Part shown: positions 2,809-19,393 of the stretch, piece after piece
Position numbering within the stretch: the first letter of the stretch is position 1
How the letters are laid out: each line of letters starts with the position of its first letter
Assembly (NCBI GenBank): GCA_963771275.1
Contig: CAVYSW010000003.1
Location: 832,001 to 896,000 of the forward strand
Length of the DNA: 64,000 bases
Source: an uncultured Gemmatimonadales bacterium
GTDB taxonomy: Bacteria > Gemmatimonadota > Gemmatimonadetes > Gemmatimonadales > GWC2-71-9
Reading direction: 5' to 3'
Program-made: the position numbers and the translations under genes
Notes under the pieces: model-generated
The model's database searches: none
Told to the model about the DNA's origin: nothing
Seen by the model: only the letters and a program-made list of their open reading frames with translations

Positions 2809-3377
2809 GCCTAACCAGCGGAGGAGCGGGCCGTGCACCAGGAGCATGCGGACGTAGGTGTTGCCCTGCTTGGTGATCGCGCCAGCCGCCGCACGGCACC
2901 GCGGAGTGCTCCGCGGCGTGAGGCCGAGGTAGGCGGCGAAGTCGCGGCCCGAGCGGAAGCGGTGGATGTCGCCGACGAACGCCACCAGCGCGGTGGCGGT
3001 GAGGACGCCACGCCGGGCACGGTGCGCAGGAGTTGGGCGTCGGGCATCTGCTCGGCCAAGCGGGTGAGCTCGGTGCGGACGACCTCGGCCTTCGCCTCGA
3101 GCCCTCGATTTCTTCCAGCACGATCTGGAGCGCGGGTCGGAGCAGTGCGGGAACGGTGTCGGTCTCCAGGGCTGCGTACACCCGCGGCCGCACATGGTGG
3201 GCACCCACCGGGATGACGCACCGAACTCCCGCAGGTGGCCCCGCACGGCGTTGATCCGAGCGGTGCGGGTCTGGAGATAGCCTTGCCGGAGCGGTGACGA
3301 CGACATACAGCTGACGAGGGCGCTTATCTTGCGGCTGCGCCGCAGCGCCCTCGCCGCTGATGCGCAGGTCGTTAGGC
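2809..3377 (+). repeat. attC site split by an IS110 remnant
   Basis: R'' GCCTAAC 2809-2815; remaining arm ~3306-3377 ends GCTGATGCGCAGGTC-GTTAGGC. Confidence 0.75.
2816..3305 (-). pseudogene. IS110/IS1111-family transposase remnant (frameshifted, N-terminal DEDD domain missing)
   Basis: Motifs across frames: RTARINAVRGHLREFG, LLRTVPGV, GDIHRFRSGRDFAAYLGLTP, ITKQGNTYVRMLLVHG. Confidence 0.85.
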
Positions 3378-3421
3378 GGCAGCGAAAAGGTCGGCAACGT
3401 ATTCTCGAGACCGTCGGGTCC

Positions 3422-4060
3422 TTGCTCATCATCATTGGATGGGGCCTCCTTGATCGGCTCGGGGCCCTGCGCATGCTGCGTCAGCGAATGCATCGCGTCA
3501 TCGACTTCGGCAATAGGCTGAAGACGTACTGGGATAGCGCCGGGAACGATCAACAGACCTATCTCGAACTCGTGCGCGATTCAGCGTTGATCCAGTCAGA
3601 GCTCGGTGGGTTCGGCGTCGTTGATTGGAAACCGCATGGTGCGAACTACATCATGCACGACTATCAACTGGTCGTGAATGGTCTTGGCGAGATCCAGCAC
3701 TGGTTGCCACAGCGAGCTCTCTTCTCAACGGTGGATCCGGCAAAGGACTATGCCGACGCGATTCGGGATGCGCTTCTGAGATTCGTCGGCGTACTCGAAC
3801 AACGCGAGCATCGAGTCCTTGCCGACATTCGGAATCCTCTGATTCTCTTCCGGGAAGGGATAAGAGCCCTTATAACGATCCCGGTCTGGATAGCAGGATC
3901 TCTTGGATTGATAACGCAGGACACAGTCGGAAGGGTCCGGACTGGCGCCGTTGCGCGCGTGCTCGGTGGGATAGTCGCAACCATCGGCTTCGTCTCGGCG
4001 ATCATCGGCGCTGTCACTGGCTGGCGTGCCTTCCTCGACATCATTCGCAGCTGGTTCTAA
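3422..4060 (+). CDS. Cassette protein: hypothetical membrane protein (start uncertain)
   Basis: Open frame filling the cassette; hydrophobic segments at both ends (e.g. VLGGIVATIGFVSAIIGAVTGW). Confidence 0.65.
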   Translation: MLIIIGWGLLDRLGALRMLRQRMHRVIDFGNRLKTYWDSAGNDQQTYLELVRDSALIQSELGGFGVVDWKPHGANYIMHDYQLVVNGLGEIQHWLPQRALFSTVDPAKDYADAIRDALLRFVGVLEQREHRVLADIRNPLILFREGIRALITIPVWIAGSLGLITQDTVGRVRTGAVARVLGGIVATIGFVSAIIGAVTGWRAFLDIIRSWF

Positions 4061-4075
4061 GTCGAATGTGCTGCC

Positions 4076-4216
4076 GCCTAACCGGCGCTTGAAGCTGGCC
4101 GGCCCTTTACGTTCTCGAAGGAAGGGGTCTTTGCTCGCGTGGTAAATGCCTGGGTACGTTCACGCTGCGTTGCTGCTGGCGAGCTAGGGCCGGCAGCTTA
4201 AGCGCAAATCCGTTAG
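4076..4216 (+). repeat. attC site (subfamily B) with an IS110 inserted in the R' box
   Basis: R'' GCCTAAC 4076-4082; GTTAG 4212-4216 continues as GCAGCACGC at 5374. Confidence 0.9.
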
Positions 4217-5172
4217 CAACTGTGTTGAATGCTGGGCGCCGGCACGGCCCAGCGTTGGTTGTCTCGGACCATGGCGTTGAGGACCGTCAGCAGTTTCCGG
4301 GCGCACGCGATCAGCGCGACCTTCTTCGGCTTGCCCGCCGCGATCAAGCGATCGTAGAACACCTTCAGTTGGGGATTCCACCGGCGGCCACAGAGCGCTG
4401 CCAAGTAGAGGGCGGTCCGGACCGGAGCCCGTCCCCCCCAGATCATGCGCTTCCCGCGGAGCGTGCCGCTGTCGCGCGCTAAGGGGGCCACCCCCACCAG
4501 GGTCGCGATCTGCTTGTGCGTGAGGGTGCCGAGCTCGGGCAGCTCGCCGAGCAGGACCGCGCTCACGATGGGGCCGATGCCCGGGACGCTCTGCAGCAGA
4601 TCGTCCTGGGCGCGCCACACGGGGCTGGCTTCGATCTGCGCCGCCAGCTCCCCGGTAACGTCGTCCAGCTGATGCTCCAACCAGCGAATGTGCTGCTGGA
4701 TCCCCCGGTGCAGCGGCCGCGGGGCAAAGCCGAGGCGGTTCTTCTCGGCCACGAGCATCGCGAGCAACTGCCGGCGGCGGGTGAGCAGGGCGTCGAGCAG
4801 CTGGGCCGCCTCGTCGGCCAGGGGCCGCGGCATGGGCCGTACCCGCTCGGCGAACAGCGCCAGGATGGCCGCGTCGATCCGGTCGGTCTTGGCCAACTGG
4901 CCCGTCGCCTTGGCAAAGTCCCGCACCTGGCGAGGGTTCGCCACCACCACCGGGACGCCCGCCGCTGCGAGGGCCGCCACGACCGGGCGCTCGAACCCGC
5001 CGGTCGCCTCACACACGAGCAGGGCGGGCTTCAGCCGCCGCAGCCGCGCCACGAGCTCGGAGATCCCTGACTCGTCGTTGGCGACCTGCCAGGCCTCACC
5101 CGTCGGCCGCCGCGCCACGTCGAGCGTCGCTTTGGCCACGTCCAGCCCCACGAACACCGGCTCGCCACTCAT
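4213..5172 (-). CDS. IS110-family recombinase/transposase
   Basis: [23 protein letters not shown] (DEDD) and [38 protein letters not shown]. Confidence 0.95.
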
Positions 5173-5373
5173 CGCCCCCTCCTCGGAGAACGGCCTCGTC
5201 GCGACCCGACCTTGCCACATGCGGGCTCTCGGCCCCGACCAACTGTTCGGGCTTCCGACGAGTCCTGACGGTGGGCGACGCCCTGGCTAACGGACGGTCT
5301 CGCGGACCCTAGGCAACACGGGCTATCGCCCACCGCAATCTGCTTGCACTTTAGGGAAGAAGCGATATACAAG
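4215..5373 (-). mobile_element. IS110-group (IS621-like) insertion sequence with CT core
   Basis: AG (CT on the element strand) at 4215-4216 and 5372-5373; removal restores GTTAGGCAGCACGC, the complement of the next cassette's GCGTGCTGCCTAAC. Confidence 0.92.
5200..5371 (-). ncRNA. Putative bridge RNA in the IS110 left end
   Basis: Two stem-enclosed internal loops carrying target guides (5311-5319, 5287-5294) and donor guides (5240-5246, 5211-5214); boundaries approximate. Confidence 0.82.
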
Positions 5374-17778: not shown

Positions 17779-18128
17779 ACTCCCTCCTCGCTCTCGGCAG
17801 CGCGATCGTAGGCCCGGAGCCGCCGCCGACAGACGTCGATCACGTGGCGCGGCGTCAGCGCCGTCTTCTTGCTGAACACGTCCGCGATCACGATCGCGTC
17901 CCGGTCCACCCGATAGACCAGACGCCACGTGGTGTCCGCATCGCGCACGCGCAGTTCATGGCAATGGGGCCCAATCGCCGGCATCGGCCGCGACTGCGGC
18001 AGCGTCAACATGTGACCCCCCTGCACTTGCCGGAGTAACACGCCCGCCTCGACGCGAGCCGCTGCCGAGAATGGCGGGGTCTTGACCTCCCCATGGAGCC
18101 AGACCAGCGGCTTGTCGCCCAAGGCCAT
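17775..18128 (-). CDS. RelE/HigB (Gp49-like) toxin
   Basis: KPLVWLHGEVKTPPFS...CHELRV...WRLVYR...FSKKT. Confidence 0.85.
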   Translation of the reverse strand: MALGDKPLVWLHGEVKTPPFSAAARVEAGVLLRQVQGGHMLTLPQSRPMPAIGPHCHELRVRDADTTWRLVYRVDRDAIVIADVFSKKTALTPRHVIDVCRRRLRAYDRAAESEEGV

Positions 18129-18135
18129 GAGGAAG

Positions 18136-18157
18136 TATATGTCATATGCGACATATA
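18136..18157. promoter_or_regulatory. Palindromic operator upstream of the TA operon
   Basis: TATATGTC-N6-GACATATA perfect inverted repeat just before the toxin ATG. Confidence 0.65.
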
Positions 18158-18294
18158 GGCAAGTGGCCGTCTCTAACCGGCGCTTGAAGCTGCCCGGCGC
18201 CTGCGCCGGGCCTAGGATTGAGCGCCTGGGACTCTCCGGGACCAGGTCATTGACCAGACGCGCCTCGCCTGGTGCACTCTCGCGCCGGCAGCTT

Positions 18295-19370
18295 TCTGTG
18301 AAGCGGTGCCCCGCGTCAAGCCCCCCCCCGAGCTTGCCATCGCTCCCTTCCTCCGTTGTCCCGCCCGTCTCGAGGTGCTGCTCAGCCTTCTGTGCGCGCT
18401 CGTCGTTGAGGCTCGTCGGCCTCGGCGCATCGGGGTGGTACGAAGGAGCGGACGGCGCCAACTAAGCGACGGCCTCGTGCGGCGGCCATACGCTGCCGCG
18501 CTCTCGACCTGGTGCGACCGCAGGATCCGCCAGGCGGCCTCGACCAGCAGGTAGCGGACCCGCCGATTCCCCGCCTTGGTGATCGGCCCCACGCGGCGCG
18601 GTTCGTTCGAGCTGCGCTCCCCGGGCACCACCCCCAGATAGGCCTCGAACTGGTGCGCCGCGGCAAACCGGGTGATGTCATCGATCGTCGCGTTGAGCGG
18701 CGTGAGCAGGGTGACCAGCGGGGCCAGCTCGGCGGCCAGCGTCGGCGACACCGGGAGCGCCTCGAGCTGCGCCCCCCACCCGCTCGGCCGCGCTGCTCGG
18801 CACCCGCAGGCCGTCGCGGCGCACCAGCGCCTTGGCGAGGGCGACGGAGCGCGTGCGGGTGCGCACCAACGCCTCCCGCACCGCCAGCTCCGCCCGCACA
18901 GGGCGCCGCGGCTCCGCGAGGCGGTGGGCCCGCCGATAGGTGCCCGCCTGACAGGCCTCCATCAACGTCCGCGCGTCCCGCTTGTCCGTCTTCACCCGCC
19001 GCGAGCGGGTGGCGTACATCGGCGCGTCGTTCGGATCCGCCACGATCACCGCGTGCCCCAACGATTCCAGATGCCGCGCCACCCACTCACTCTCCGTGCT
19101 CGCCTCCAGCAGCACCCGCGCCGGCGGCCGATCGGCCAAGACGGCAGTGAATCGCTCGCGGCTCGTCACGATCCGCCGGTCGGCGATCGTCCCGTCCGCG
19201 TGCCCGATGCAGAGCTGGCTCTCGCGTTTGTGCAGATCAAGCCCTATCGTATCCATTGGTAGCTGGCCTCCCGGTTGCGCCCCGTCGCAAGACGGTGAGC
19301 GCGTGAAAAGCGTGTGGGGCAAGCTTGCCACCACGGAACCGTGGAGGTCAGCTACCGCTTCATACCAACT
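18295..19370 (-). mobile_element. IS1111-group element with decayed transposase
   Basis: Subterminal inverted repeats TGAAGCGGT 18299-18307 and ACCGCTTCA 19354-19362. Confidence 0.85.
18463..19256 (-). pseudogene. IS110/IS1111 transposase pseudogene
   Basis: MDTIGLDLHK, LLEAST, KTDKRDA, then frameshift and deletions; YLGVVPGERSS and ITKAGNRRVRYLLVEAAW in another frame. Confidence 0.85.
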
Positions 19371-19393
19371 AAGCGCATGTCCGTCAGGCTGCG

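Follow-up and report, generated by a model that had tools for sequence, protein, structure and literature searches.

Several distant IS110/IS1111 lineages probably use guide RNAs to insert at separate sub-sites of integron attC sites in a Gemmatimonadales genome

Insertion sequences (IS) of the IS1111 type that target attC, the gene-capture recombination site of integrons, have been described since 2008–2009, and their seekRNAs were shown in 2024 (PMC11187229). In that paper, the IS1111 subgroup is described as having subterminal inverted repeats of 11–13 bp, extensions of 7 and 3 bp and a longer non-coding region 3' of the transposase gene, and ISKpn4, ISPst6 and ISPa25 as carrying a 3' seekRNA in which the top-strand match lies 5' of the bottom-strand match. 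The attC-targeting IS1111 group (ISPa21, ISPst6, ISKpn4; also ISPa25) is described as monophyletic and as using one position near the 5' end of attC, antisense to the cassettes (PMC3001079). Here we analyse a stretch of 64,000 nucleotides from an uncultured Gemmatimonadales bacterium (the window; G000:C3:832001-896000, where G000 denotes the genome and C1 to C11 its contigs), in which five interruptions, IS1rem, IS2, IS3, IS4 and IS5, lie in the attC sites of one cassette array; coordinates are window positions unless a contig is named. As in the published group, DEDD transposases sit at fixed attC positions. We consider it highly likely that guide RNAs of three, and probably four, distant IS110/IS1111 lineages target conserved attC boxes. 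If so, attC targeting, so far published for one IS1111 clade at one position, would extend to several lineages and three sub-sites.

The genome (3.86 Mb, 70% G+C) is assembled in 11 contigs, in which repeats are possibly under-assembled. Across window positions 2093-21574 the G+C content drops and a repeat of about 141 nt with integron attC anatomy recurs, consisting of an R'' box (G/C)CTAAC, an L'' box GCGCTTGAAGCTG, a variable centre, an L' box CAGCTTAAGCGC, a spacer of 5–6 nt and an R' box GTTAG(G/A)C. The bottom strands fold into hairpins in which R'' pairs with R' and L'' with L', with one bulged base. A profile trained on 40 attCs elsewhere in the genome, none of them from the window, had nine matches in the window; all lie inside 2093-21573, and the other 42 kb gave no match. 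The tenth window attC, which holds IS1rem, is too divergent for the profile and was seen by eye and by its fold; rejoined in silico, it forms a 73-nt hairpin with R''/R' pairing. Throughout the genome, 59 profile matches plus this site amount to 8.0 kb (0.21% of the genome), with 36 attCs at the start of C3, ten on C7, ten in the window and four scattered. A full integrase gene, intI, adjoins the ten attCs on C7 (433 bits against a cut-off of 265), and this larger integron has 46 attCs over C7 and the start of C3. The repeats in the window thus have hairpin folds, recur between cassettes and share a genome with intI, as expected of integron attCs. The window array has no integrase, the closest intI being a broken copy about 110 kb distant, and its ten attCs therefore form a cluster of attC sites lacking an integrase (CALIN).

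An earlier note on this DNA had placed all five IS within attC at four sub-sites, and this was borne out by sequence reading, by the profile and by excision (Table 1). When the IS were removed in silico, full-length profile matches were regained at four of the five split sites, with scores rising from 78.7 to 85.3 bits at the IS4 site, from 64.5 to 86.4 at the IS5 site, from 132.2 to 138.2 at the IS3 site and from 137.1 to 138.1 at the IS2 site. The insertion positions given there also hold, except that IS2 had been placed at 4215, inside the AG core (4215-4216); the element starts at 4217. The note had seen no IS in the 42 kb outside the array, in agreement with a scan of 58 window open reading frames (ORFs) that found no transposase domain beyond three IS110-type genes; a further domain scan of the window added an IS481-like gene and two IS110 fragments. 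Whole-genome six-frame scans for nine transposase Pfam families added just two loci, both outside attC: a degenerate IS110-type locus on C10 and an rve_3 fragment on C11. attC makes up about 1.4 kb of the 58.5 kb of window that remain without the IS (2.4%), so that the chance of finding all five in attC is about 8e-9, a figure to be read with the caveat that two of the five are dead relics. In the whole genome, seven of nine transposase loci fall in the 0.21% that is attC. IS load differed between arrays: the CALIN has five of its ten attCs occupied and the integrase-linked array one of its 46 (Fisher p = 3.6e-4). The C10 element (G000:C10:20655-21730) is the genome's sole IS110-family element outside attC; it is frameshifted and belongs to yet another lineage. 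A 1722-bp repeat (C3:1732371 and C11:29735) considered as an IS was rejected, as it is a duplicated NHL-propeller gene.

On domain content, four of the five interruptions are members of the IS110/IS1111 superfamily with DEDD transposases, and they represent four distant lineages, of which IS2 and IS4 are intact and IS5 and IS1rem decayed. IS2 and IS4 carry both PF01548 and PF02371 and score 217 and 248.5 bits with NF033542 (cut-off 140); IS5 has both domains, in two frames, and IS1rem shows PF02371 alone because it is a fragment. These elements are therefore not mutually unrelated, as the earlier note had supposed, though tblastn between the four transposases gave at most 33% identity or no match.

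IS2 has a 151-nt 5' region, a CT core, covarying left and right target guides (LTG and RTG) and a two-loop fold, which on sequence grounds place it in the IS621-type subgroup. Like the IS621-type bridge RNA as described in PMC11208160, it combines a long 5' non-coding region, a CT core and two internal loops, where the loop's 5' side matches the left target and core and its 3' side complements the core and right target. IS2 differs in that its target is the attC R' box and not a REP-like (repetitive extragenic palindrome) or genic site. It also differs in that its transposase frame reaches the element end and is closed by target bases: the frame passes through the end (4213-4217), its last codon takes the core C, and the stop codon TAA (4213-4215) consists of the core T and the AA of the attC R' box. 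We searched for relatives in 201 genomes sampled from the same order and found an IS2-family match in 36 (the tally counts one unpublished genome, G090, on which no claim depends). Alignment of the left ends of this family showed that the conserved element begins TGTAT with CT before it, and that the CT core is kept at both ends; a first boundary for IS2 of 4217-5378, without the core, was dropped, the conserved left end of the relatives starting CT-TGTAT. A second copy in the same genome (C3:4587-5748, 99.9% identical) directly follows GTTAG of an attC in the large array, at the same nucleotide. It is the only other genomic copy of any of these IS, so the concern that other copies might lie mostly outside attC did not materialize. 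The pre-insertion target of both copies is TCCGTT-AG-GCAGC, an ordinary R' box. This full 13-nt target occurs in four attCs of the genome, two occupied and two free, and the shortage of free targets may explain the low copy number of IS2.

The guides of the IS2 family vary with their targets. At fixed sites in the 5' region, a 7-mer equals the last five bases of the left flank plus CT, and an 8-mer complements CT plus six bases of the right flank. Among 21 elements with both ends called, the RTG matched its own flank at 7.24 of 8 positions versus 5.83 for flanks of different targets, and the LTG at 6.18 of 7 versus 5.10; in 5000 shuffles the observed value was never reached. Eighteen of 27 readable right flanks start CT-AACG, the complement of CGTT-AG, and members at other targets have matching other guides, such as TCGCTCAG for CT-GAGCGA. 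The consensus fold of the family has two internal loops, with compensatory changes in ten of 25 pairs. In one internal loop, which encloses a small hairpin, the LTG occupies the 5' side and the RTG the 3' side; the sequences ACAGTTGC and CAAGG in the second loop match the ends of the element itself. In the window element, the left guide would read GCTGC-CT and the right guide would pair with CT-AACGGA, giving recombination at the AG of the R' box (GTT-AG-GC). An Rfam scan of window positions 1-24000 (E<=1) returned a single chance match to an internal ribosome entry site (IRES) and no curated bridge-RNA or attC family. Two IS2-family members, L048 and L050 (in G077 and G109), have guides that read CT-GAGCG and lie at the foot of hairpins of about 80 nt with CTGAG/CTCAG ends, which may be a different repeat class, or attC type, hit by the IS2 family. 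Four coded sequencing runs, X1, X3 and X4 among them, were examined as Logan contigs, in which depth and missing cover are uninformative; joints between distant attCs arise from repeats and were set aside. In X1, IS3 and IS2 each form a contig of their own, and in X3 the left end of IS2 runs into a different flank.

IS4 has the 11-bp subterminal inverted repeat (TGAAAGCGCGG) and the 200-nt 3' region of an IS1111 element, with terminal extensions of 8 and 2 nt versus 7 and 3 in the published description. Close relatives (56–79% identity) were present in eight of the 201 genomes, with ends found in eight of nine loci and 13 ends in total. All 13 adjoin (C/T)(A/T)TAAC(N) before the element or GG(N)GCG after it, that is, the spacer between R'' and L''. 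The attC sequence hosting the family varies among genomes, and every element is in sense orientation. Candidate guide 2 of the family has the form GGTAAC(N)CGA, in which N agrees with the flank in four of five elements. Candidate guide 1, situated where the transposase gene ends, varies with the local form of attC and matches at 10/10 for TGCAGGCGCT, 7/7 for GCAACGC and 10/10 for GTGCAACGCA. The 3' guide region of the window element would read TAACC to one side and the L'' box to the other, which would direct insertion between R'' and L''. In 72,556 plasmid records, nothing exceeded 42% identity to the IS4 transposase, the best matches coming from Streptomyces and rhizobia.

IS5 is a decayed IS1111-type element of 1075 bp, compared with about 1390–1420 bp in relatives; it has a frameshift and two internal deletions and retains both ends, with the subterminal repeat TGAAGCGGT. 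Its family, matched in 18 of the 201 genomes, has the IS1111 features of a subterminal repeat (TGAAGCGGC), extensions of 7 and 3 (+1) nt and guides in the 3' region; guides were also sought in the 5' region and none were found there. Within the 3' region, a conserved scaffold holds a first variable segment that complements the right flank and a second that equals the left flank plus the start of the IS, which is the order described for seekRNAs (PMC11187229). The guides of 13 elements matched their own flanks at 12.92 of 15 positions versus 8.03 for cross-comparisons, with 0 of 5000 shuffles reaching this value. The guides of the window element would read GGCAGC and CGCTTA, for insertion in the middle of L'. 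This position in L' recurs in G008, G059, G067, G003 (twice), G012 and G053, and visual inspection showed an R'-type box within 30 nt in about 15 of the family's 22 evaluable left flanks. Thirteen copies in G134 lie at another point, 24 nt into attC, and seven elements occupy sites outside attC that end in GGAT or a similar word. The target words of IS4 and IS5 are present in 40 and 48 attCs of the genome, where each family has one copy; targets being plentiful, their spread must be limited by something besides target supply. In the metagenome runs X1 and X4, a contig runs from 18243 straight to 19276, with most of IS5 and 51 nt of attC lost and about 94 nt of the left end of the IS kept, consistent with continuing decay of IS5.

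Relatives of the IS2, IS4 and IS5 lineages in the 201 genomes thus lie mostly at the same attC sub-site and in the same orientation, which answers the question about copies in related genomes raised by the earlier note. The arrangement of these three lineages recurs in G003, a member of a different family of the order: a 10-kb array stretch there has an IS2-like element at R', one IS5-like element at L' and two IS4-like elements between R'' and L'', with one attC doubly occupied and all orientations as in the window, and a second array of G003 has one IS2-like and one IS5-like element. An alternative to guide-RNA targeting is that the IS inserted at random and survived just in attC, which supplies most of the non-coding DNA in a packed array. 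IS3 fits this account, with its short palindromic duplication, its relatives outside attC and a GATC that only five of 59 attCs have in the L'-R' spacer. For IS2, IS4 and IS5, it is already contradicted by independent copies at the identical nucleotide and orientation in this genome and in other genera and by guides complementary to the flanks; moreover, other intergenic DNA of the array is free of insertions. We therefore regard a filter of selection as very improbable on its own, in keeping with the earlier argument that selection against ORF disruption would not suffice. Guides aimed at attC boxes, by contrast with such a filter, would make each lineage insert at one nucleotide and in one orientation, and bridge-RNA or seekRNA targeting would account for the box-level precision. 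On this reading, that precision would come from attC-complementary guide RNAs acting by a published mechanism (PMC11208160, PMC11187229) and not, as the earlier note had it, from a convergence of different mechanisms. That the guide RNAs are made and direct recombination is what we infer from these sequence patterns. attC may be favoured as a multi-copy, dispensable and horizontally mobile target.

It is also conceivable that the transposases recognize the folded attC hairpin itself, as group IIC-attC introns and single-strand transposases do, and not a sequence through RNA. attC sites are structured single strands, the two IS2-family members at the foot of hairpins of different sequence would fit this idea, and the targets of ISKpn4 and ISPa11 are reported to lie in potentially folded structures (PMC11187229). 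Against these points, the guides vary with the flanking sequence, non-attC targets included, and the mechanism published for the family is RNA pairing to both DNA strands (PMC11208160, PMC11187229). Recognition of structure in place of sequence is thus improbable, if somewhat less so than selection alone.

Because the arrays lie at contig ends in a fragmented assembly, we also considered whether the IS might be cassettes themselves, be placed by the integron integrase, or reflect misassembly. The junctions lie away from the G/TT crossover point, however, and each removal restores one attC and not two. An independent X1 contig (14022-15971, nine differences) covers both IS4 junctions, and relatives have the same junctions. 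We give these possibilities hardly any credence.

IS1rem and IS3 require separate treatment. In a three-frame reading, IS1rem is a multiply frameshifted internal piece of an IS110-family transposase (about residues 130–300) with no recognizable ends and no similarity to the ends of IS4. No close full-length relative was found in the 201 genomes, the best match being 64% over 61 residues. The nearest full-length relative, L094 (G080:C185), adjoins an R' box in the other orientation. IS1rem is a fragment of a fourth IS110-family lineage. L094 ends directly beside CTT-GTTAGGCAGCACGCCGGT, which is the R' box plus cassette start of the reconstructed window IS2 site, so that the same cassette junction exists in another genus, differently occupied. 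IS3, the only truly unrelated element of the five, has inverted ends starting TGT and a 4-bp duplication, GATC. Its IS481-type signals are weak (LZ_Tnp_IS481 at 20.5 bits and rve_3 at 17.9 bits, both under the Pfam cut-offs, together with a helix–turn–helix (HTH) match), and a profile scan did not find PF00665. Among 63 relatives (39–61% identity) in named public genomes of many phyla, about 30 have readable ends; these have 4-bp YTAR duplications, and their flanks showed no attC features, which speaks against any attC preference in this lineage. We read IS3 as an IS481-like DDE element, unrelated to the other four, whose untargeted insertion was tolerated in non-coding DNA.

Several observations weigh against guide RNAs as the full explanation. 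A look through sequencing runs found the stretch in no RNA run, and the guides are predictions from sequence. Because the relatives share ancestry, the shuffle tests make the elements look more independent than they are. Several members of the IS2 and IS5 families are at other targets, and attC targeting is therefore a trait of sub-lineages and not of whole families; by a crude hairpin test, just 7–10 of the 18 IS2-family relatives with a CT-AACG flank have an attC-like fold. Guide 1 of the window IS4 fits its own flank at just 6/7, and the guides of the window IS5 fit theirs at 7/8 and 6/7. Although IS1rem has no ends, both its borders fall exactly on the IS4-type point (CTAACC before and GGCGC after) in the orientation opposite to IS4, a residue that guide-RNA targeting leaves unexplained. 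The presence of IS3 in attC, with odds of about 1 in 10 within the array, is a remaining coincidence.

The window elements differ from the published attC-targeting IS1111 group in several respects, as judged from published descriptions, with the insertion nucleotide taken from PMC3001079. IS4 and IS1rem lie near the 5' end of attC, as that group does, whereas IS4 and all its relatives are in sense and the published group is antisense; IS5 and IS2 are antisense but lie in the 3' half of attC, in L' and R'. The IS1rem fragment alone combines a place near the 5' end with antisense orientation. Group IIC-attC introns are likewise attC specialists with a fixed orientation near one end (PMC3001079), but they are retroelements that recognize a structured single strand and have no DEDD transposase. 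REP-targeting IS110/IS1111 elements (ISPa11, ISPpu9) are likewise described as guided to a short, multi-copy, dispensable repeat; attC differs from REP in being a gene-capture recombination site, so that insertion also alters cassette mobility. In the literature searched we found no report of several distant IS110-family lineages dividing attC into sub-sites, of a bridge-RNA element of the IS621 type with the R' box as its target, or of guides that track attC variants from one genus to another. Earlier publications cover IS1111 elements that target attC, together with their seekRNAs; what is new is that multiple lineages share one attC, an IS621-type element among them, and that the trio recurs in G003. 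The guides would be naturally occurring bridge RNAs and seekRNAs directed at the recombination sites of integrons, and a puzzling pattern becomes mechanistic and testable, in that the guides predict which attCs each element can hit.

Four of the insertions part the hairpin halves by 0.5–1.4 kb, and those four of the ten attC sites are therefore probably disabled. The progressive immobilization of the array that the earlier note proposed is plausible for these four sites and doubtful for IS2, whose insertion spares GTTAG and the G/TT crossover point. Since IS2 lands just downstream of the crossover, it becomes the front of the next cassette and could travel between genomes by means of the integron integrase. 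These elements thus offer a route to ask whether they freeze cassette arrays or ride on cassettes, and the contrast in IS load between CALIN and integrase-linked arrays bears on the origin and decay of CALINs. A broader proposal, which we make tentatively and hold to be possible rather than probable, is that the integrons of the whole order have diversified together with three or more RNA-guided IS lineages, each lineage with its own sub-site and orientation in an attC of about 140 nt and with guides tracking the local variant. If so, the integron would be both landing pad and vehicle for these IS, and IS load would mark arrays beyond the reach of the integrase.

Table 1. Features of the cassette array in window coordinates; guide segments are predicted.
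Feature	Position	Strand	Details
Intact attC	2093..2234	+	R'' GCCTAAC 2093-2099, R' GTTAGGC 2228-2234; profile 99.4 bits; bottom-strand hairpin
R'' half (GCCTAAC+C) of IS1rem-split attC	2809..2816	+	sequence reading
IS1rem	2817-3318	-	R''/L'' spacer, CTAACC / GGCGCTT
L''-L'-R' part of IS1rem-split attC	3319..3377	+	R' GTTAGGC 3371-3377
attC holding IS2	4076..4216	+	ends GTTAG; last R' bases GC at 5374-5375; 137.1 bits
IS2	4217-5373	-	follows GTTAG of R' box
IS2 transposase gene	5220 to 4216	-	intact, IS110-type
IS2 5' non-coding region	5221-5371	-	151 nt
IS2 right target guide TCCGTTAG	5287..5294	-	complement of CT+AACGGA (attC spacer + R' box)
IS2 left target guide GTTGCCT	5311..5317	-	matches left target GCTGC+CT, one G-U pair
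IS2 duplicated core AG (CT on IS strand)	5372-5373	-	from relatives' ends
attC holding IS3, left part to GATC	6218..6355	+	right part 7778-7789, R' GTTAGAC 7783-7789
IS3	6356-7777	-	L'-R' spacer; GATC duplicated at 6352-6355 and 7778-7781
IS3 transposase gene	7705 to 6479	-	408-residue HTH/DDE protein
Intact divergent attC	13888..14029	+	profile 29.9 bits
R'' half (GCCTAAC+C) of IS4-split attC	14574..14581	+	remainder 15942-16076
IS4	14582-15941	+	R''/L'' spacer, CTAACC / GGCGCGC
IS4 transposase gene	14659-15741	+	intact, IS1111-type; 3' non-coding region 200 nt
IS4 candidate guide 1 GGCAAACGCT	15716..15725	+	complements right flank (L'' box); own copy 6/7
IS4 candidate guide 2 GGTAACCCGA	15757..15766	+	equals left flank TAACC + IS start CGA
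L''-L'-R' part of IS4-split attC	15942..16076	+	profile
Intact attC	17310..17451	+	profile
attC holding IS5, left part ending GGCAGCTT	18171..18294	+	right part 19371-19389 (AAGCGC...GTCAGGC)
IS5	18295-19370	-	splits L' box, GGCAGCTT / AAGCGC
IS5 guide 2 TCGCTTAGTTGG	18458..18469	-	equals left flank GCGCTTA + IS start
IS5 guide 1 GGCAGCGTATG	18488..18498	-	complement of right flank AAGCTGCC, 7/8
Intact attC, degenerate R' box	20612..20752	+	profile
Final attC of array	21429..21574	+	R' GTGAGGC; profile

Outside the window, the full intI (G000:C7:1-7232, L108) points toward its own cassettes, a co-directional arrangement unlike that of divergent classical integrons. C7, C5 and the start of C3 each begin within arrays and may be a single integron of more than 46 cassettes. 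The frameshifted intI (G000:C3:964508-965400, L111) is followed by just the 5' third of an attC, and a lone attC lies far from the arrays at G000:C9:138645-138771.

Within the array, positions 7790-13888 form an unusually long cassette of 6.1 kb with three genes. One encodes an 817-residue SMC/AAA_23 ATPase with weak matches to the Lamassu LmuB and mad3 defence proteins and another a 760-residue DnaJ-domain protein; the cassette may carry a defence system. Three further cassettes are toxin–antitoxin-like: 14063-14579 encodes BrnT and a small partner and its attC is the one split by IS4, 17446-18100 (minus strand) encodes a Gp49/HigB-like and an HTH protein, and 20814-21419 encodes a small protein and an HTH protein.

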